Positions 4,650 through 60,204 of a stretch of DNA of 64,000 bases are shown here, one piece after another. Source of the DNA: a virus; IMG/VR virus record IMGVR_UViG_3300009008_000010, positions 56,241 to 120,240 of that record. One strand, 5' to 3'. The notes under the pieces were generated by a model. It was not told where the DNA came from. It made no database searches and saw only the letters and a list, made by a program, of their open reading frames with translations. The number at the start of each line of letters is the position of its first letter. Positions within the stretch are counted from its first letter, which is position 1. A program made the position numbers and the translations under genes.

Positions 4650-5438
4650 ATGACATGTAAAAGCTCAGGATGTGGAAATACGATGGATGCCCCGATTGTT
4701 CGCAATTCAGGGTGTCCCGACAAATTTGGATGTGGCCCAGATGTTTGCCCAGATTTTGTAATAAGGCGAAATGATTCTCTGCCTTCTTTCAAGTTGCTTG
4801 TCGAAGATTGCGATGGGCCGCTAGATTTAGAGGACGAAGACATCATTGTTGAAGCCAATATGTGGGCCAGAGTAAAATTAAAGGCCGCTCTTACCGCAGA
4901 TGCTACGTCATTTAGACTAGCAGATGATATTGGGTTTGAGCAGGTAATGACTGGGGATATTATTATTATGGAACGGGTTCGTGCGCCCGAACATATGATA
5001 GTCACTGGATTTGATGAAGTGAATAAATTGATTCATGTTACTCGTGGCTACAATGCTACTATACCCTCAGCGTGGAAAAAAGGGGCGGTTATGAGGGTTT
5101 TTCGCATGATAAATGCCCCAGCCGCAATTGAGTTAATTAAGCAAGATATACTAAGCCCTGATGGGTCTACAGAAGAAGATGTTTTAACAGATACTTTTTT
5201 GGTGTATGAGTGGAATACTGGTAACACCTGTCTTCCTGGTTGTTATTATTTTGAGTTTAAAGTGTTGAAGCAAGAAGAAGGTGCTGAACCACATACACAC
5301 ACACCAAGCGTAAGTTCTACTCCAAGCGTCAGTTCAATTCCCTGCGGGGCTACTGGCATTGAGTGGATAAGAAGGTTCCCTGTATCGGGAGAGGGGTTTT
5401 TAATTCAAATAGTTGATTCTCCAACATCGGAACCGTAA
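4650..5438 (+). CDS. putative virion structural protein
   Basis: beta-rich ORF; N-terminal FVIRRNDSLP resembles baseplate BppU-type domains (weak). Confidence 0.45.
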   Translation: MTCKSSGCGNTMDAPIVRNSGCPDKFGCGPDVCPDFVIRRNDSLPSFKLLVEDCDGPLDLEDEDIIVEANMWARVKLKAALTADATSFRLADDIGFEQVMTGDIIIMERVRAPEHMIVTGFDEVNKLIHVTRGYNATIPSAWKKGAVMRVFRMINAPAAIELIKQDILSPDGSTEEDVLTDTFLVYEWNTGNTCLPGCYYFEFKVLKQEEGAEPHTHTPSVSSTPSVSSIPCGATGIEWIRRFPVSGEGFLIQIVDSPTSEP

Positions 5439-5451
5439 AACGAAACGAAAT

Positions 5452-5973
5452 ATGAAAAAGAAAGAAAAAAACAAGTTCACAAGAGTAAACGATCAGATTA
5501 GAATTTCTCCTGTTCGTGTTGTAAAAGATGGTGAACAATTAGGCGTTATGCCTTTAGATAAAGCTAAAAGGCTGGCCAGAAATGCAAAGCTGGATCTCGT
5601 AGAGATAGCTCCGCAAGCCAGACCACCAGTTTGTAATATTATTGATTATGGTAAATTTCGTTACCAGCAATCAATTAAAGAAAAAGAGATAAAACAAAAA
5701 TCCAAGACTTCAGAAGTTAAAGAAATTCGTCTTTCGCCTAAAATTGCTGTTCACGATATAGATACGAAAACGAAAGCGGCTCGCAAGTTTTTAGAGCAAG
5801 GTAAGAAGGTGCAGTTTAATTTACTATTTAAAGGTCGTGACTTAGCACATAAAGACACGGGCTTTGCAGTGGTTAAAAGAATGGCAGAAAACCTTGAGGA
5901 CGTTGCTCAAGTAGAATTGAAACCTAAACTCGATGGCAAACGTCTTATATGTAGACTTGAACCCAAAAGGTAA
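5452..5973 (+). CDS. infC: translation initiation factor IF-3
   Basis: RVNDQIR, LDLVEIAPQARPPVCNIIDYGKFRY, KEIRLSPKI..HD motifs. Confidence 0.96.
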   Translation: MKKKEKNKFTRVNDQIRISPVRVVKDGEQLGVMPLDKAKRLARNAKLDLVEIAPQARPPVCNIIDYGKFRYQQSIKEKEIKQKSKTSEVKEIRLSPKIAVHDIDTKTKAARKFLEQGKKVQFNLLFKGRDLAHKDTGFAVVKRMAENLEDVAQVELKPKLDGKRLICRLEPKR

Positions 5974-21527: not shown

Positions 21528-21697
21528 ACCTTTTTACGCTGTTTTTAAAAACAGGCAATTGATAGAATTAACCACAAGTGCGGAAAAAGCAGTCAGAAAA
21601 TATGTGTCAGATGCATCACCTTCTTCGGGCATTTTTCGAGTGATGACAATTGACGATCTGGCTGCGATTTTCGCCAAAAGTTACAAGAAGGAACAGG

Positions 21698-21931
21698 ATG
21701 GCTAAGGAAGAAGCGTTGACGGTTCAAGGTGTGGTAACACAGGCTTTGCCTAATACCACGTTCAGGGTAGAGATTGATATGCCGGATAGTGACAATATGC
21801 CCACAATTCTTGCGCATTTGTGTGGAAAAATGCGCAAGAATTATATTAAAATTGTTCCTGGGGACAAGGTTAAGGTAGAACTATCCCCTTATGACCTAAC
21901 CAAAGGGCGTATCGTTTTCCGAGAGAGATAA
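21698..21931 (+). CDS. infA: translation initiation factor IF-1
   Basis: [18 protein letters not shown]...[33 protein letters not shown]. Confidence 0.97.
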
Positions 21932-35823: not shown

Positions 35824-35851
35824 TTGACGATGCCCGATGCTGTGCTATAAT
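35824..35851 (+). promoter_or_regulatory. sigma70-like promoter heading the tRNA region
   Basis: TTGACG-16 nt-TATAAT with TG extension; ACTATATAA motif also at about 35901. Confidence 0.7.
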
Positions 35852-35920: not shown

Positions 35921-35994
35921 AGCGGGATGGAGCAGTCCGGTAGCTCGCAAGGCTCATAACCTTGAGGCCGTAGGTTCAAATCCTACTCCCGCCA
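35921..35994 (+). tRNA. tRNA-fMet(CAT)
   Basis: Cloverleaf, CTCATAA loop, A1xC72 mismatch. Confidence 0.9.
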
Positions 35995-35996
35995 CT

Positions 35997-36069
35997 TACC
36001 AGGAATGCCTGCGGAACTACATTGGATTATGAAAACCAACCCCCAGTTTCGTGAAAATTTGTCCTGGTA
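35997..36069 (+). ncRNA. free-standing GAAUGC/UACA/UUUGUC module, copy A
   Basis: TACCAG/CTGGTA closing stem; motif shared with 38505, 39298, 42210, 47926. Confidence 0.7.
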
Positions 36070-36085
36070 TTTTTTTCGACACACA

Positions 36086-36179
36086 TGGCAGGTAGCTCAA
36101 AGCAGAGCGTTATTAAATCAGTGAAATTTCGGTTTTACAGATTTAATGAAGATGGTAGCTTCGCAACTACCCCTGCCAC
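36086..36179 (+). ncRNA. tRNA-like RNA with anticodon arm replaced by a long UUCG-capped hairpin
   Basis: TGGCAGG/CCTGCCA acceptor, GCTC/GAGC D arm, altered T loop CTTCGCAA. Confidence 0.75.
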
Positions 36180-36239
36180 TTTACAAAGGCTTAGCCGCCT
36201 TTGTGAATCGCCCCCTCACTTTGAGGGGGCGGGGGATTT

Positions 36240-36336
36240 GGTCGGGTAGCTCAGAGGTAGAGCGCTATCAAGCTGAAACTTACGCAAGTTCGTTCCAGGT
36301 TTTTAGAGGTCGATAGCTCGAAACTATCCCCGGCCA
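36240..36336 (+). ncRNA. tRNA-like RNA with extended irregular anticodon arm
   Basis: GGTCGGG/CCCGGCC acceptor, D arm, T arm GATAG-CTCGAAA-CTATC. Confidence 0.75.
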
Positions 36337-36759
36337 CTTGGGAGGTAAGTCACTCATAGGGATGCAGAGCAACCCTTATTGGGACGCAAAGCGACCCGCC
36401 GAGTGGCTTGCCACCCAACTGATTTTGGAGAAGATCAGAAAACGATAAAATTGGAGTTTGCGAGACACGGAAAAACCGCCGCCCAACTTTGGGGAATTTT
36501 TTTCCGAATTTTGCGAACCAAAAAACGAGAAGGTTACTCTATATAGTAGAGTCGAAACAAACGAAGGTGAATACAATGTTGGTTTCTCTGGTAACAAAAC
36601 GATACTGGCAAGACGGGATTACCTGTCCGTGCGGTATTTGTGCGCCCAAACAGGGTGAACAAAAGACCGAAACAGGACATGATAATCCAATGTCCGTATC
36701 CTGAACCAGAGTGACAAGCGCGGTTCAGGGTTAGCCTGAGCCGGTATTAGGATAAGATC

Positions 36760-36801
36760 AAAAGCCCGCTCAGGCACACTGGATGCCGAGCGGGCTTTTT
36801 T
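36760..36801 (+). terminator. intrinsic terminator with possible upstream antiterminator
   Basis: AAAAGCCCGCTC...GAGCGGGCTTTTTT; GCCTGAGC at 36734 complementary to its 5' arm. Confidence 0.75.
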
Positions 36802-36876
36802 CATTGGAGAAAATAATATGAGACTGAGAACAAGGGCTGGTTTCCGTTAAGGCTTCAACCTTAACGGAGATCAGAA

Positions 36877-37251
36877 ATGGCACATAAAGCACACTTTTTG
36901 CGTCGTCCGAAGACAACGCAAGAGCGGAGAGCTAACGGAAAAAGAACAGAACAGCGCGACCTAGAATATAAAATTCGCGCTAAACGTAGCGGAGCTAACC
37001 TAGTTGATGCATGGGATGATATTTGCACCAGCGTCAGCACGGGTTGGAAAGCACAAACTAAAAGAAAAAAACAATACAAGGTAATTAACTTTGAGAACCA
37101 AACAGGTAATCGTGATCCGAAAGGATCTGAAGATGAGGCGGGGGAAAGAGATTGCACAGGGCAGTCACGCCTCGATGGCCTTTCTAACCAGAAGGTTAAA
37201 AAGACCATCATCCTGGTTCCGATTATTCTGGTTGTTGTTATCGACGGTTGA
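36877..37251 (+). CDS. basic phage hypothetical protein
   Basis: RRPKTTQERR...LVDAWDD...WK..TKRKKQYK; 3' part overlaps the Pth2 gene. Confidence 0.5.
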   Translation: MAHKAHFLRRPKTTQERRANGKRTEQRDLEYKIRAKRSGANLVDAWDDICTSVSTGWKAQTKRKKQYKVINFENQTGNRDPKGSEDEAGERDCTGQSRLDGLSNQKVKKTIILVPIILVVVIDG

Positions 37252-37480
37252 AATTAAATGGCTCAGCGATTCGTTCGCAAAAGTCGTTTGCCGTGTGGAT
37301 AGCCTCGATGAATTAAAAGAAATTGAGGCGCAGGCAAAAGAGGCGAACCTGGAAGTTCATTTAATTGTCGATAGTGGACGAACGGAGTTCAACGGGGTGC
37401 CGACGCCAACGTGTTTGGCAATCGGTCCTGATGAAGCAGATAAAATTGACGAAATAACTGGGGGGTTAAAACTGTATTGA
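37091..37480 (+). CDS. pth2: peptidyl-tRNA hydrolase Pth2
   Basis: KQVIVIRKDLKMRRGKEIAQGSHA, DSGRTEF, TCLAIGP...IDEITGGLKL. Confidence 0.94.
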   Translation: MRTKQVIVIRKDLKMRRGKEIAQGSHASMAFLTRRLKRPSSWFRLFWLLLSTVEIKWLSDSFAKVVCRVDSLDELKEIEAQAKEANLEVHLIVDSGRTEFNGVPTPTCLAIGPDEADKIDEITGGLKLY

Positions 37481-37506
37481 GTCGATTAATTTCGGCTCAA
37501 TGCTGA

Positions 37507-37580
37507 CCGGCGGTAACTCAGTGGTTTAGAGTGCCTGTCCGATGAACAGGTGGCCGAAGGTTCGAGTCCTTCTCGCCGGA
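37507..37580 (+). tRNA. tRNA-Ile(GAT), atypical (C33, G37)
   Basis: Cloverleaf; CCTGT-CCGATGA-ACAGG. Confidence 0.75.
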
Positions 37581-37588
37581 CTTAATAT

Positions 37589-37674
37589 GACGACGTGGCC
37601 GAGTGGCTGAAGGCAACAGTCTGCAAAACTGTCGAGCGTATTGCTCCGCGTGGGTTCAAATCCCACCGTCGTCT
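37589..37674 (+). tRNA. tRNA-Cys(GCA) with long variable arm
   Basis: ACAGT-CTGCAAA-ACTGT; U73. Confidence 0.85.
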
Positions 37675-37695
37675 CTGATGTTTGATAATTTAAAT

Positions 37696-37768
37696 GGCCC
37701 GGTGTGATATTGGTCTTACAGCAAGACTTTCAATCTTGCCGATGCGGGTTCGATTCCCGTCCGGGTCA
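37696..37768 (+). tRNA. tRNA-Glu(TTC)
   Basis: CAAGA-CTTTCAA-TCTTG; atypical D arm. Confidence 0.8.
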
Positions 37769-37770
37769 CT

Positions 37771-37859
37771 GTGTACGAGGCAGATACGGTTTGCTGCGCC
37801 TGGTTGTGGCCCAGGAGGTCGATACAAAGACCATGCGGGTTCGAGTCCCGTCGTACACC
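37771..37859 (+). tRNA. tRNA-His(GTG) with long variable arm
   Basis: CCTGG-TTGTGGC-CCAGG; C73; no encoded G-1. Confidence 0.85.
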
Positions 37860-37868
37860 CTTTAATAT

Positions 37869-37942
37869 CGGGGAGTAGCTCAGCTTGATAGAGCGCCTGG
37901 TTTGGGACCAGGAGGCCGCAGGTTTAAATCCTGTTTCCCCGA
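37869..37942 (+). tRNA. tRNA-Pro(TGG)
   Basis: CCTGG-TTTGGGA-CCAGG. Confidence 0.88.
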
Positions 37943-37949
37943 CTTGTGA

Positions 37950-38023
37950 GGGCATATAGCTCAGTTGGTTAGAGCGCATCGCTGATAACGATGAGGTCCG
38001 TGGTTCGACTCCACGTATGCCCA
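37950..38023 (+). tRNA. tRNA-Ile(GAT)
   Basis: CATCG-CTGATAA-CGATG. Confidence 0.93.
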
Positions 38024-38206
38024 CCTGAAGGAAATGAAATGACAAGAGAAGAATTAATTACATATTTAAAGGAGAACCTTAAAATTGTGGTCAGCGAAAC
38101 TGGCTCTGACTCATATGGTTATGGTGGTCAGTACGTTGATGTTTCACTGATGTTGGAAGGTGAAGTAATTTCTTCAGATTCATTTTCAGTGGAAAAAGAT
38201 TAAAAT

Positions 38207-38277
38207 AGGTCCGTGATGAAACGGTATCATGTCGGTCTCCAAAACCGATCTTCGGGGTTCAAATCCCTGCGGGCCTG
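38207..38277 (+). tRNA. tRNA-Trp(CCA)
   Basis: TCGGT-CTCCAAA-ACCGA. Confidence 0.92.
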
Positions 38278-38285
38278 CTTGTTTT

Positions 38286-38359
38286 GCGGCAATAGTGTAG
38301 TGGCTTCTGCACGTCACGTTGCCAACGTGAAAGTCGGGTTTCGATTACCCGTTGCCGCA
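38286..38359 (+). tRNA. tRNA-Gly(GCC)
   Basis: TCACG-TTGCCAA-CGTGA. Confidence 0.9.
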
Positions 38360-38431
38360 CTGGTTATGAGCCTCGTATGGACTGCGTTTAATTTTTAACT
38401 ATTGGAAATAGGAGGACAAATATGAGATAAT

Positions 38432-38502
38432 GCAGGTGTCGTATAATGGTATTACCTCAGCCTTCCAAGCTGATGACGGGGGTTCGATTCCCCCTACCTG
38501 CT
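38432..38502 (+). tRNA. tRNA-Gly(TCC)
   Basis: TCAGC-CTTCCAA-GCTGA. Confidence 0.93.
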
Positions 38503-38504
38503 CT

Positions 38505-38584
38505 TAGGCGAATGCTAGATGGGATTACATTTTTTGACTCTCAATCAAAAGCGATGAAACGATCTCATTGATTTTTGTCGCCTA
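38505..38584 (+). ncRNA. free-standing module copy B carrying a Glu(CTC)-like anticodon stem-loop
   Basis: TAGGC/GCCTA closing stem, GAATGC, TACA, TTTTGA-CTCTCAA-TCAAAA, TTTTTGTC. Confidence 0.75.
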
Positions 38585-38587
38585 TAT

Positions 38588-38660
38588 GCTACCGAAGCCA
38601 AATGGCGAGGCGCTGGTTTTGTAAACCAGAAATAGATGGGTTCGATTCCCTCCGGTAGCT
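38588..38660 (+). tRNA. tRNA-Thr(TGT)
   Basis: CTGGT-TTTGTAA-ACCAG. Confidence 0.87.
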
Positions 38661-39220
38661 CTTGGAGAAAATAAAATGACAATTTTTCGTAGCAAAAAGG
38701 ACGGACATTTATACAAAATCACTCACGAAAGGCCACCGAAATACACCGGAAGCTGGTATAATGCTCACCCATTGTTTCCAGATCAGGGTAAATTTCAAAA
38801 GAGTATACGTGTGGTGAGTTATGGCAGCGATCCGGTATTTAAGGATTTCGTGGCTATAGCAACGAGATAATGGGAGCAACCGCTTAGTGGTGCGACGTGT
38901 ATTCGCATCCAAGTTGGCGGTGGCAGAGGAAGACAAGTTGGTTGGGTTGTCGCCTCAATTTTTAAGGAAATCAAAGTGACGAATGCAGAAGTTTTAGGTT
39001 TGCGGATCAAACGATTCATGGCGATTGGGAAAGAGATTGCGGATTTAACAAAAGAGAGCAAAAAATTAAGGAAGGAGATTGCAGGATTAACTGAGGAATT
39101 GGGGTTTACGGTGACTTCAGAAGAGCCAGTTGAATTTTTGGTTGGCAACACTCATGTGTCAGTCAAAAGGGCAAAAATGGAAAATGATTTCACGATAATT
39201 CCAAGAGAATTAAAACAAAC

Positions 39221-39296
39221 GGTGCATTAGTGTAGCGGCTCTGCACGCTTGCCTGTCGAGCAAGAAGAATTGCGGGTTCGACCCCCGTATGCACCG
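39221..39296 (+). tRNA. tRNA-Asp(GTC)
   Basis: CTTGC-CTGTCGA-GCAAG; G73. Confidence 0.88.
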
Positions 39297-39297
39297 C

Positions 39298-39392
39298 TTG
39301 GACGAATGCAAATGGGTTTACATTGGATAATTTCGTTCGACTCGAAAAGCGGGCCTAGCCCGTTTATGAAACTCATAATTTTTGTCGTCCAA
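39298..39392 (+). ncRNA. free-standing module copy C with T-loop-like hairpin
   Basis: TTGGAC/GTCCAA stem, GAATGC, TACA, TTCG-TTCGACT-CGAA, TTTTTGTC. Confidence 0.75.
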
Positions 39393-39398
39393 ATTTAA

Positions 39399-39486
39399 TG
39401 TAGGGTACGCTAACGGTAAGCGGACTGCCTGTTAAGCAGTTGTATTCCCTTAAATGGGTATGGAGGTTCAAATCCTCTCCCTACAG
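39399..39486 (+). tRNA. tRNA-Asn(GTT) with long variable arm
   Basis: ACTGC-CTGTTAA-GCAGT. Confidence 0.85.
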
Positions 39487-39545
39487 CTTGAAAAAATACT
39501 TCCAATACACTATATAACAGTATAAGTTATTTAAGTGTTGGAGGT

Positions 39546-40100
39546 ATGATGACAACAACAAACTCAGAATGTGTTAGACGTTGGAGGGAAAAAACTAAAT
39601 GTAGGTTGGTTGAAGGTTTTGGCGGTAAGTGTAACAAATGTGGTTATAATCGCTGTTATGCTGCTCTTGATTTTCACCACATAGATGAAACGCAAAAGAA
39701 TTTTGGTATTTCGGAGGCATTGGCAAAGCCTAAACGATGGGCAATACTTGTTGAAGAAGCCAAGAAGTGCGTTATGTTGTGTAAGGTTTGCCATGTAGAG
39801 TTGCATGAAGGAATTTGGAGTTTGTCCGAGATAGATTTGTTTGAGTTTAATTACGAGGAACAAAAATCTCAGAAAGAAATTCCAACGGGTGAGTGTCCTG
39901 TGTGTGGTAAAGAAGTTTTCTTAGGAAACATTACTTGCAGCAGGCGATGTGCGGCAAAGAAGAGAAACAAGATTGAATGGCCAGATAATTCTCAACTTTT
40001 AAAAATGTTGGAAGAAGGGTCTTTTGCTTCAGTTGCGACAGAGTTAGGAATCTCAGATGCAGCCATTAGGAAAAGACTCAAAAAATACGGCGCGGTGTGA
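39546..40100 (+). CDS. HNH homing endonuclease with C-terminal HTH
   Basis: GGKCNKCGYNRCYAALDFHH...KCVMLCKVCHVELH. Confidence 0.88.
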   Translation: MMTTTNSECVRRWREKTKCRLVEGFGGKCNKCGYNRCYAALDFHHIDETQKNFGISEALAKPKRWAILVEEAKKCVMLCKVCHVELHEGIWSLSEIDLFEFNYEEQKSQKEIPTGECPVCGKEVFLGNITCSRRCAAKKRNKIEWPDNSQLLKMLEEGSFASVATELGISDAAIRKRLKKYGAV

Positions 40101-40161
40101 TATTGGTTTTACATCCACCCTCTCAAGGTGGACGATGCGGGTTCGATTCCCGTCCGCGTCA
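40089..40161 (+). tRNA. tRNA-Glu(CTC)
   Basis: CCACC-CTCTCAA-GGTGG; paralog of 37696. Confidence 0.8.
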
Positions 40162-40269
40162 CTTGAATATGGGAGTGTTCCCGATTGGTCGGGATACAAT
40201 AGAGAACAATTAAAGAGAGAGGAAGAAGACATGTTGCTTCAGCGATTGAAACGCAGATCCCAATAACTT

Positions 40270-42181: not shown

Positions 42182-42310
42182 TGGCGGGTAGCTCAATTGG
42201 CAGAGCGCGTAAAAAAACTTCTCTGCAAAATTTGTCCGTAAGGAATGCTCGGTAGGGAATACAATGGTCTTCGGAACCCGTGGTTGCAAGTTCGAGTCTT
42301 GCCCCGCCAA
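42182..42310 (+). tRNA. tRNA with anticodon TCG (Arg) interrupted by a 56-nt insert (42210..42265) at position 28/29
   Basis: Removing the insert gives CGGGT-CTTCGGA-ACCCG and a full cloverleaf. Confidence 0.8.
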
Positions 42311-42313
42311 CTT

Positions 42314-42457
42314 GAGGGAATGACGTAACGGTAGCGTACCAGTACCGCTAGGCCCCAGAGCGTTGGGAGACACAATTAAATGTGGCACCCTAACCCTAAT
42401 TTGGGCATCGGTGTACAAATTAGGCTGGCAGTGTAGGTTCGATTCCTGCTTCCCTCA
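42314..42457 (+). ncRNA. tRNA body with 80-nt multi-hairpin domain in place of the anticodon loop
   Basis: GAGGGAA/TTCCCTC acceptor, D arm, CCAGT/GCTGG stem, T arm. Confidence 0.75.
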
Positions 42458-42542
42458 CTTGCTGTCAAAGATAGCAAAAAGATGCATTCCATGTAGCGAA
42501 AGATAACAAAAATGTTGCATTTCTATGTATGAAATGATTTAG

Positions 42543-42612
42543 CGGGGTGTAGCTCAGATGTTAGAGCGTGCGAAAATATGCAAGGTCGTTGGTTCAAGTC
42601 CAATCACCCCGA
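42543..42612 (+). ncRNA. tRNA-Pro-like body with shortened anticodon arm (pseudo-tRNA)
   Basis: CGGGGTG/CACCCCG-A acceptor; 14-nt TGCGAAAATATGCA arm instead of 17 nt. Confidence 0.7.
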
Positions 42613-47896: not shown

Positions 47897-48024
47897 TGGC
47901 GGGTAGCTCAATTGGCTAGAGCGCGAAAAAAACTTCTCTGCAAAATTTGTCCGAAAGGAATGCTCGGTAGGGAATACATTGCCTATTAAGCACGAGGTTG
48001 TGGGTTCGAGTCCCGCCCCGCCAG
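47897..48024 (+). tRNA. tRNA with anticodon ATT interrupted by a 54-nt insert (47926..47979) at position 28/29
   Basis: Removing the insert gives CGTGC-CTATTAA-GCACG; insert near-identical to 42210..42265. Confidence 0.8.
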
Positions 48025-59098: not shown

Positions 59099-59141
59099 CT
59101 AAGGTAGTTGGGGGCAAGTTCCACTTGTCTTCTTTGCCTTT

Positions 59142-59187
59142 CACCCCGCACCGGGTCAGGTCTTAACCGAAGCAGCCCAGCGGGGTG
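59142..59187 (+). ncRNA. minimal SRP RNA (4.5S domain IV/helix 8)-like hairpin
   Basis: GGGTCAGGTC...GAAGCAGCCC inside CACCCCGC/GCGGGGTG. Confidence 0.72.
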
Positions 59188-60204
59188 TTTTTATTTAAGG
59201 ACACAGAAATGGACGAAGAACAACTTAAAATATGTCAATTTTCTACAGGGTGTAGATACCTTGGCGTGCGTGATGATGACACTTACGAATGTCTCAAGAA
59301 CGATGCTAATAAGCGTAAAACAATTGACGAAGAGGTGTATGCTATTATTCCCAGTTTAATTAAAAAGCCGAACGCTCTCCTGTTAGACATGTTGCCTTTG
59401 GGAGATTTTTGTAAAGGGATTTAAAGTGGTCTCAGAAAAAATCAAACAATTAGCTGCTAGTTATTGCAACCGAGTGATGGATAATAAATCGGATGAATTA
59501 ACAAGAGGGGTTGAATCTTTTGGAAAACCCAGCCTTCGTAGTAGTTGTGAGTATTGTTATCCAACCTACGGCGATGCTGAGGATTTATTTCGAGCTTGTG
59601 AGCTTTATGAGAGGTCGAGGAATGGAAGCCTATAAAATCTTTGACTTGGGTGCAGATGGCCCCAAAACGTTATTTCACGGTCTTGAAGGTAGCAGAACGC
59701 TACCAGTGGGAAAGTGGCTAGATGCTGAAATTAAATTAGTCACAGATGGATCTAGAGCGGAGCCTTATGAAAGTGGTTTCCATGCCTACTATACTTTGGA
59801 CGATATTCACGAATGGTTGCTGAGGGCCAAGAACCTCGATCATCGAGTCGTTGTCAAGGTAGAAGTGAAAGGTTGCTGGGAGAAACCACGGGCTATTCGT
59901 CCCACAATTCTGGCTAAACGCCTCAAAATCTCTGATCGAAATTGGAAAAACAGAATTCCTGCGAGAGAGTTCCTAAATACAGTAACTCTCACGGAGGCTT
60001 AGGAATGTTTAATTTAGTAGCTTGTTCGGTATTTATGATTGTAGCTATTGCGCACTTGGTAAGGGCAATCTGTGGGTGGGATTTATTAATTGGTAGAGCA
60101 CCAGGACATACTTTCAAAAAAGAAGGATTTTACTGGATGATGCCGAGATGGGTCTCATGGTTTGCCGCACTTGCCATTGGGGCGTTAGCAGTATGGGGAC
60201 TTTT

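Follow-up and report, generated by a model that had tools for sequence, protein, structure and literature searches.

Introduction

The conservation of Y RNAs and of their protein partner Ro60 extends from bacteria to humans. We analyzed a 64,000-nt stretch of huge-phage DNA (the window), positions 56,241-120,240 of the IMG/VR virus record IMGVR_UViG_3300009008_000010, whose whole length is 120,240 bp (24% complete by the CheckV estimate). Its tRNA array holds three free-standing RNAs, named A, B and C, and two interrupted tRNAs, named W1 and W2, which have in common a putative docking handle. This handle would consist of a stem P1, an asymmetric internal loop (GAAUGC/UUUGUC), a stem P2 and the word UACA. 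The structure is conserved and covarying, it resembles the bacterial Y RNA YrlA, and in related phages it is linked to rsr genes. A, B and C are very probably phage-encoded Y RNAs, small non-coding RNAs that would dock on the ring-shaped protein Ro60/Rsr.

Chen et al. 2014 (PMC4201824) define YrlA by three features: a 5' GNCGAAN0-1G at the presumed Rsr site, a YUAY word, and a core in which a T arm, a closed acceptor stem and a D arm follow one another. Its resemblance to a tRNA in circularly permuted form was described by Wang et al. 2018 (bioRxiv 10.1101/312249), and in Mycobacterium smegmatis RNase P opens the YrlA and CCA is added to it (Chen 2014, PMC4201824). Hughes et al. 2020 (PMC7790460) suggested that YrlA might competitively inhibit an anticodon nuclease. 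Complexes of Rsr, Y RNA and PNPase are a published precedent (Chen 2014, PMC4201824; Wang 2018, bioRxiv 10.1101/312249). TROVE proteins were noted in jumbo phages (Iyer 2021, PMC7824862), phage Y RNAs include those of the jumbo phages CcrColossus and G (Chen 2014 via PMC12135203), and the Ro60 of the Thermus phage phiLo binds two phage Y-like RNAs and the host PNPase in vitro (PMC12135203).

Comparison with described systems

With YrlA (Salmonella Typhimurium, Mycobacterium smegmatis and others) the window RNAs share the 5' GNCGAAN0-1G strand (here CGAAUGC, in B and C), P2, YUAY and the 3' UUGUC strand. Both have tRNA-like arms inside the handle and a gene that adjoins rsr (here in related phages), and C aligns over the whole YrlA model. 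The differences are that A and B have no tRNA-like core, C has no D arm, and the scores stay below 69 bits; the copies of the window stand in a tRNA array, with no rsr found in 120 kb. In W1 and W2 the handle is capped and the chain ends at the acceptor stem, which is open, so that the arms follow in the tRNA order, D then T, whereas YrlA has T then D.

YrlB (RF02565) and Yrl1/Yrl2 of phiLo are simple Y RNAs with a terminal stem, a bulged CGAA region and a small inner module, as in the window. The phiLo RNAs, likened to ours from their description, are phage-encoded and bound by the phage Ro60 (PMC12135203). In contrast to these, B matches YrlB weakly (25.3 vs 97 bits) and its inner hairpin copies an anticodon loop. 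The RNase P-opened, CCA-ended YrlA (Chen 2014) has an open acceptor-like stem and the Rsr handle on the anticodon side, like the hybrids; its shape arises from cutting a permuted precursor into two, whereas the hybrids are one chain with tRNA topology and mostly keep the anticodon arm. Wang 2018 also discuss the permuted tRNA genes known from algae and archaea and a b7a-tRNA predicted next to RtcB; in common with our RNAs are the relation between tRNA and permuted topology and the link of tRNA-like RNAs to RNA-repair loci. As far as that text describes them, they are processed to normal tRNAs or are without a Ro60 handle, and no Y graft in the anticodon stem is among them.

Since phage Y RNAs are already in print, A, B and C by themselves enlarge a known family in an expected way. 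A preliminary description, made from the sequence of the window alone, had taken such a modular family as new; free-standing Y RNAs with varied inner domains, phages included, have been published (Chen 2014, PMC4201824; PMC12135203), and this part of it is given up. The less ordinary part is the docking handle built into otherwise complete tRNAs, in the present genome and in seven other huge-phage genomes. This tRNA-embedded form looks undescribed: in a literature search, from which the supplementary phage Y RNA tables of Chen 2014 were left out, no Y handle built into a tRNA was described.

Free-standing RNAs A, B and C

The three RNAs were located as follows.

35997..36069, plus strand: Y-like RNA A (-20.6 kcal/mol, z -2.69; YrlA 29.5 bits, E 0.0016; covariance model R1 53.3 bits)
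38505..38584, plus strand: Y-like RNA B (z -3.34; YrlB 25.3 bits, E 0.06; R1 74.5 bits)
39298..39392, plus strand: Y-like RNA C, a truncated YrlA (z -3.96; YrlA 33.3 bits; R1 59.1 bits)

A, B and C have a common layout, P1, GAAUGC, P2, UACAUU, a variable part, P2', (A/U)UUUGUC and P1', with P1 sequences that differ and still pair (A, UACCAG/CUGGUA; B, UAGGC/GCCUA; C, UUGGAC/GUCCAA). Each adopts the proposed shape on folding (z-scores -2.7, -3.3 and -4.0 for A, B and C). The order in A is P1 (6 bp and GA/UC pairs), GAAUGC, P2 (8 bp), CUACAUU, a 24-nt inner part forming a weak hairpin, P2', AAAAUUUGUC and P1', and a U run lies 3' of the RNA. In B the inner part folds into a UUUUUGA/UCAAAAG stem that carries a 7-nt loop, CUCUCAA. 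C contains two hairpins, one T-arm-like (UUUCG UUCGACU CGAAA) and one closed and acceptor-like (GCGGGCC UAG CCCGU), and no D arm.

Rfam at curated thresholds detected tRNAs only. In a permissive Rfam search the YrlA model (RF02553) aligned over its full length to C and A, and the best match of B was YrlB (RF02565), all with scores below the family cut-offs. C covers YrlA model positions 1-114 with 18 positions, the D arm, deleted; its T arm and closed acceptor-like hairpin align, so that the T-loop-like hairpin seen in the preliminary description is placed on the T arm by the Rfam model. The conserved words of C coincide with the YrlA consensus CgaAUGC, CUAc and UuGucG. W1 gave only partial YrlA matches (13.7-14.7 bits).

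The GNCGAA(N)G signature, which the preliminary description had named, is indeed printed in Chen 2014 (PMC4201824). In the strict form GNCGAAN0-1G it was found in B (GGCGAAUG) and C (GACGAAUG), and it is absent from A (CAGGAAUG) and from W1 and W2 (AAGGAAUG), which have GGAAUG. The base preceding GAAUGC is C in 7 of 17 free-standing phage copies. Past P2, YUAY is present as CUAC in A and UUAC in B and C; in W1 and W2 it is AUAC, with a purine first. The YrlA core order of T arm, closed acceptor-like stem and D arm does not appear, as A and B have no core and C has no D arm. These words suggest that the handle common to A, B and C corresponds to the Ro60/Rsr-docking stem of YrlA-type Y RNAs.

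Covariation and pattern searches

The structure common to A, B, C and their homologues exceeds chance. When the two halves of a helix were taken from the same copy, P2 formed 7.45 bp on average against 4.39 for non-cognate halves, and P1 formed 4.94 of 6 against 2.18 (0 of 10000 permutations reached either value; 22 copies for P2 and 17 for P1, with W2 dropped because its module duplicates that of W1). In an alignment of 18 free-standing copies from 7 phage records, 85.1% of cells paired compared with 59.2% after shuffling (0 of 500 shuffles reached it), slid controls paired at 36-55%, and both sides change in 12 of 14 pairs. This alignment was fitted to R1, a covariance model built from 10 copies, and so favours the structure; the cognate/non-cognate test is free of such bias. 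For the hybrids (n=15, aligned by MAFFT with the secondary structure written by hand) the pairing was 88.7% of cells vs 68.7% shuffled, again reached by 0 of 500 shuffles, with both sides changing in 22 of 26 pairs; by element, the share of paired cells was 100% for P1, 95% for the acceptor stem and 98.7% for the T stem. The layout and the divergent, still-pairing stems read from the sequence beforehand agree with the covariation tests. A conserved covarying terminal stem with a word-bearing internal loop, by which Y RNAs are recognized in the broad sense, is thus present in the free-standing copies and in the hybrids.

R1 matched A, B and C only on the whole 120-kb contig (53-74 bits) and also detected copies absent from its training in related phages (E 5e-8 to 3e-4). 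The words themselves are less telling: GAAUGC...UACA occurs 6 times in the window vs 2.3 expected, and 5 of 100 shuffles reach 6. A one-mismatch relaxed scan of the contig returned the 5 known copies and 9 weak matches, vs a mean of 3.0 in shuffled sequence. Such counts, and the loose scans described below, would suit the view that the likeness arose by chance or from repeats, such as terminator-like palindromes located between tRNA genes. The pairing tests refute this view, since covariation in both helices is far over the shuffled and slid controls and R1 finds untrained copies, and we regard it as hardly conceivable.

Homologous copies in other large phage contigs were collected by pattern scans of viral contigs filtered for pairing. 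Among the matches listed from the loose scans, the real-looking loci were L072, L143, L247, L267, L275, L276, L284 and L289; most loose-scan matches were rejected as chance occurrences in coding DNA. Ten loci matched the exact permuted core TTTGTCCGNRAGGAATGC, but not one of these was tRNA-like. A pattern tuned to the hybrids gave 13 loci in viral contigs, 8 real and 5 by chance, and 12 loci, none tRNA-like, in 185,579 cellular genomes; because this pattern is tuned to the phage handle the cellular negative is weak, and bacterial hybrids with other handles may exist. Blastn with three hybrids of the phage record G009 gave no match.

Inner modules and anticodon-like loops

The family is modular, as had been proposed from the window alone: a single handle is conserved while the inner modules can be exchanged. 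The module of A is almost nothing, that of B an anticodon-stem-loop look-alike, and that of C a T arm with a closed acceptor-like hairpin. In many copies a hairpin with an anticodon-like 7-nt loop lies past UACA. The loop of B, CUCUCAA, is identical to the anticodon loop of the tRNA-Glu(CUC) at 40089, as the preliminary description had noticed, and it differs from those of the other 30 of the 31 window tRNAs. The loop CUGUAAA, which we take to be the usual bacterial tRNA-Tyr anticodon loop, was found in two Y-like RNAs of different phage records (L320 990-1065 and L326 1747-1896) on different stems, UUUGA/UCAAA and AUCAA/UUGAU, and one YrlA-like RNA of the phage G005 has the loop CUGUUAA.

The anticodon loops of W1 (CUUCGGA) and of a hybrid from a 532-kb phage (AUUCGGA) both contain UCG; other hybrids have UCC or a loop with GCU at the anticodon position. 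As a description only, among 10 distinct loops U stands at position 2 in 8, a purine at position 6 in 8 and A at position 7 in 10, compared with 29/31, 31/31 and 28/31 for the window tRNAs.

Putative tRNA/Y RNA hybrids

The two interrupted tRNAs of the window are the following.

42182..42310, plus strand: hybrid W1, a full tRNA body with a 56-nt Y handle inserted in the anticodon stem (nt 28/29)
47897..48024, plus strand: hybrid W2, a paralogue of W1, with the handle as in W1 but with the P1 loop GAAA; anticodon loop CUAUUAA

Both have the arms of a cloverleaf: a 7-bp acceptor stem, a D arm, an anticodon arm of 5 bp with a 7-nt loop and a T arm with the loop UUCGAGU; W1 has the anticodon loop CUUCGGA and a 5-nt variable loop. 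The insert of 54-56 nt interrupts the 5' strand of the anticodon stem, a perfect helix of 5 bp, between nt 28 and 29, and the arm is kept. The conserved words are in permuted order, P2'-AAAAUUUGUCC-GUAA or GAAA-GGAAUGC-P2-UACA, with P1 shortened to 3 bp (UCC/GGA) and capped by a GNRA tetraloop, GUAA in W1 and GAAA in W2. The preliminary description had correctly recognized this permutation, the GNRA closure and the position of the anticodon arm past UACA; that arm is not replaced by the insert. In W1 and W2 the handle branches sideways from the anticodon stem of an otherwise complete tRNA, and the architecture is that of YrlA except that the two chain ends lie at the acceptor stem, just as they do in a genuine tRNA.

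We found 15 hybrids in 8 phage records, including the genome of 532 kb. Their acceptor stem is open and the anticodon arm is kept in most. The P1 caps include GNRA, UUCG, UACG, AACA and one hexaloop, and the insertion point is variable (26/27, 28/29, or replacing the anticodon loop). Some hybrids of other phages encode the 3' CCA. Three interrupted tRNAs of other phages pass the Rfam tRNA cut-off (38.7-44.9 bits), and two of these are hybrids of the record G004.

The intact W1 and W2 were not called by ARAGORN and had no Rfam tRNA match at the gathering cut-off; part of W1 scored 21.1 bits. W1 without nt 29-84 was called tRNA-Arg(UCG), 74 nt, and W2 without nt 30-83 tRNA-Asn(AUU), 75 nt. Only these two exact insert deletions were used, as systematic deletions with ARAGORN were not discriminating (many different anticodons were called). 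The canonical calls would be expected if W1 and W2 were ordinary decoding tRNAs (Arg-UCG and an AUU anticodon) with an intron-like or mobile insert that is removed or tolerated, and if the free-standing copies were functionless excised or decayed versions. The encoded CCA of other-phage hybrids points the same way, and, as ARAGORN calls no tRNA-Arg among the 31 window tRNAs, W1 would fill a gap. We consider this explanation unlikely. No Rfam intron family was found on the 54-56-nt insert, the insertion point varies between hybrids while the handle stays conserved and covarying, the free-standing copies have a covarying closing stem P1 that is unexpected for debris, and the linkage to rsr (see below) is left unexplained. 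A further reading, which we hold less likely than not, is that huge phages encode a hybrid class of processable, CCA-ended and possibly chargeable tRNAs with an Rsr handle on the anticodon stem and mostly with a specific anticodon loop.

Several other tRNA-shaped RNAs were observed. In the record G001 (432.8 kb), an interrupted tRNA of 108 nt (L319 9102-9209; Rfam 38.7 bits) lies immediately 5' of a free-standing Y-like RNA. Immediately 3' of W1, at 42314-42461 of the window, there is a tRNA-shaped RNA with the acceptor GAGGGAA/UUCCCUC, a D arm, the T arm GUAGGUUCGAUUCCUGC and an insert of about 80 nt in the anticodon region, which matches no known family. At 36086-36181 a tRNA-like cloverleaf without a Y handle combines a 7-bp acceptor stem and a D arm with a T-like arm whose loop is 8 nt long; a rod of 10 + 7 bp capped by UUCG replaces the anticodon arm, and there is no anticodon (minimum free energy, MFE, -34.9 kcal/mol; z -5.6). 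The RNA at 36240-36336 scores 42.6 bits as a tRNA in Rfam, is not called by ARAGORN, and carries an extension of about 25 nt in its anticodon region, from which GAAUGC/UUUGUC are missing. The RNA at 42543-42612 is a tRNA by Rfam only (49.5 bits), and its MFE fold has a 3-bp anticodon stem and an 8-nt loop.

Linkage to phage rsr genes

The same handle was found in 12 other huge-phage records, and an rsr orthologue (about 530 aa, Pfam vWA_Ro60 and TROVE) in 10 of these. The rsr gene is present in all 7 handle records that are at least 97% complete. The best solved relative of the phage Rsr is the Deinococcus radiodurans Rsr (2nvo, E 2.5e-23), with the Ro60 of the phage phiLo and the Xenopus Ro60 next. 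The complete genome G005 (189.7 kb) has five tandem Y-like RNAs, the first starting 8 nt past the rsr stop.

L316 2831-3553 = G005:C1 101830-102552: five tandem Y RNAs beside rsr

Full T, acceptor-like and D arms are present in 4 of the 5, and 2 of the 5 score on YrlA, at 56 and 49 bits, so that the YrlA-like RNAs adjoining a phage rsr themselves stay under the cut-off of 69. The acceptor-like loop of one of them reads CCA.

A hybrid is encoded on the same strand as rsr, at a distance of about 200-1100 nt, in 7 of the 8 hybrid records, the exception being the present fragment. Chen 2014 used as a working criterion that a Y RNA lies no more than about 4 kb from rsr and shares its strand. Homologous copies are placed in this way in G004, G005, G006, G008, G009, G010, G011 and G012; those of the window are not, as no rsr was detected in the 120 kb of the contig searched. 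In G001 and G007 the copies are about 6-15 kb from rsr, within tRNA arrays.

Several observations weigh against the Rsr-docking interpretation. No rsr was found in the two remaining handle records, the fragments G002 (44% complete) and G003 (18%). The preliminary description had noted the lack of a Ro/TROVE gene in the window, and our searches with TROVE, the phage Rsr protein and Pfam gave none in the entire 120,240-bp contig either; this is not counted as a negative, because the record is only 24% complete. The search for repair genes that it had proposed gave no more: Pfam on 116 + 80 open reading frames detected no RNA ligase, Pnkp, PNPase or Rsr, and RtcB was not found in the contig. RtcB is present in 1 of 5 records searched, which speaks against a general link to RtcB-type repair. 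The YrlA scores of 33.3 bits (C) and 29.5 bits (A) and the YrlB score of 25.3 bits (B) are far below the Rfam cut-offs of 69 and 97. A, W1 and W2 are without the C of GNCGAA. Finally, P1 of the hybrids has just 3 bp, and acceptance of such a capped handle by Rsr is putative.

The missing rsr of the contig, the distant copies of G001 and G007 inside tRNA arrays, and the anticodon-like 7-nt loops past UACA (CUCUCAA, CUUCGGA, and CUGUAAA in two phages on different stems) could also mean that the handle binds another phage or host protein, or that the RNAs are protein-free decoys for anticodon nucleases, with the nearness to rsr arising from rsr genes in tRNA-rich regions. We find this quite improbable, given that the handle words are common to the published Rsr-binding region of YrlA, that the G005 array begins 8 nt past rsr, and that in 7 of 8 hybrid records a hybrid is within about 1.1 kb on the same strand. 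The Y-RNA-like identity that had been proposed is thus upheld by the correspondence of the handle to the Rsr-binding stem of YrlA/YrlB, the below-threshold YrlA alignments and the rsr genes beside homologous handles.

Two rsr neighborhoods showed further features. A group I intron match (Rfam 67.8 bits, cut at the locus start) lies at L317 1-192 (G004:C1 179500-179691), about 180 nt 5' of the G004 rsr. In a cultured phage, Myxococcus phage Mx1 (OR576727.2, about 59100-59210; L355 7180-7290), an unannotated stretch between the TROVE gene and a tRNA-Gly is handle-like, with GGAAUGC, GGUGGGAC, GUACA and later UCCCACC, and its 3' word is CCGUC. The Rsr of Mx1 has 42% identity to that of G005. R1 gave no match near the Mx1 rsr, this stretch included. 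A peptidyl-tRNA hydrolase gene follows the stretch, and the window has one as well.

Possible function

Deinococcus and Salmonella form Rsr/Y RNA/PNPase complexes; if these and the Thermus phage phiLo are taken as a guide, Rsr would sit on the handle, and the tRNA-like module would contact an enzyme or a partner that binds tRNA. We infer from this that the RNAs may bind Rsr, be processed and take part in tRNA surveillance, repair or decoy action. Huge phages carry sets of Y RNAs in tRNA arrays with one handle and swappable modules, some of them copying anticodon loops. Together, the free-standing copies and the hybrids are a natural series from the bare handle to the handle with a full tRNA, useful for asking what Rsr is tethered to. 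The hybrids bear on the idea of Y RNA descent from tRNAs and connect phage tRNA arrays with Ro60 biology. If Rsr does bind the hybrids, the phage would couple the Rsr ring and a tethered nuclease or ligase to particular tRNA identities. The hybrids could then be guarded decoys or sentinels for host anticodon nucleases, or adaptors bringing Rsr to the tRNA-handling machinery, and they would be the unpermuted form missing from the tRNA-origin model of Y RNAs.

Genomic setting

ARAGORN detected 31 tRNA genes, all on the plus strand, at 35.9-59 kb of the window. Those next to A, B and C, the tRNA-Glu with the loop of B, and a promoter-like site are listed below.

35824..35851, plus strand: sigma-70-like promoter, TTGACG, 16 nt, TATAAT, with TG preceding the second hexamer (11/12 consensus positions; consensus match only)
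35921..35995, plus strand: tRNA-Met(CAU), 65.2 bits, 3' end 1-2 nt 5' of RNA A
38432..38503, plus strand: tRNA-Gly(UCC), ARAGORN, immediately 5' of RNA B
38588..38661, plus strand: tRNA-Thr(UGU), ARAGORN, 3' neighbor of RNA B
39221..39297, plus strand: tRNA-Asp(GUC), ARAGORN, immediately 5' of RNA C
39399..39487, plus strand: tRNA-Asn(GUU), ARAGORN, 6 nt past RNA C
40089..40162, plus strand: tRNA-Glu(CUC), ARAGORN, anticodon loop CUCUCAA, the same as the loop of RNA B

A, B and C start 0-2 nt 3' of tRNA-Met (end 35995), tRNA-Gly (38503) and tRNA-Asp (39297); the adjacency to tRNA 3' ends reported earlier stands. The next tRNAs (38588 and 39399) begin 3-6 nt after the ends of B and C. The three RNAs would be part of the transcripts of the tRNA array, from which they are probably excised by the enzymes that process the adjacent tRNAs; an RNase P cut at the 5' end of tRNA-Thr would define the 3' end of B. 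The promoter-like site is about 70 nt 5' of tRNA-Met and, judged by its consensus match, probably drives the unit of tRNA-Met and RNA A.

No Arg, Leu, Ser, Tyr, Phe, Val or Ala tRNA was called by ARAGORN in the window, and its sole Arg anticodon is in the hybrid W1. No close relatives of the phage were found: megablast of 7.2 kb against cultured phages gave just two tRNA-sized matches, and a search with the Pol III alpha subunit led to one distant locus. Genes for IF3, IF1, the PTH2 peptidyl-tRNA hydrolase, PhoH and a sigma factor, among others, were identified in the window and contig by Pfam, a gene set typical of huge phages. The translation-related genes are those for IF3, IF1 and PTH2, at window positions 5413-5973, 21650-21931 and 37091-37480, and for a peptide deformylase at contig positions 56034-56531; the PTH2 gene sits within the tRNA array.

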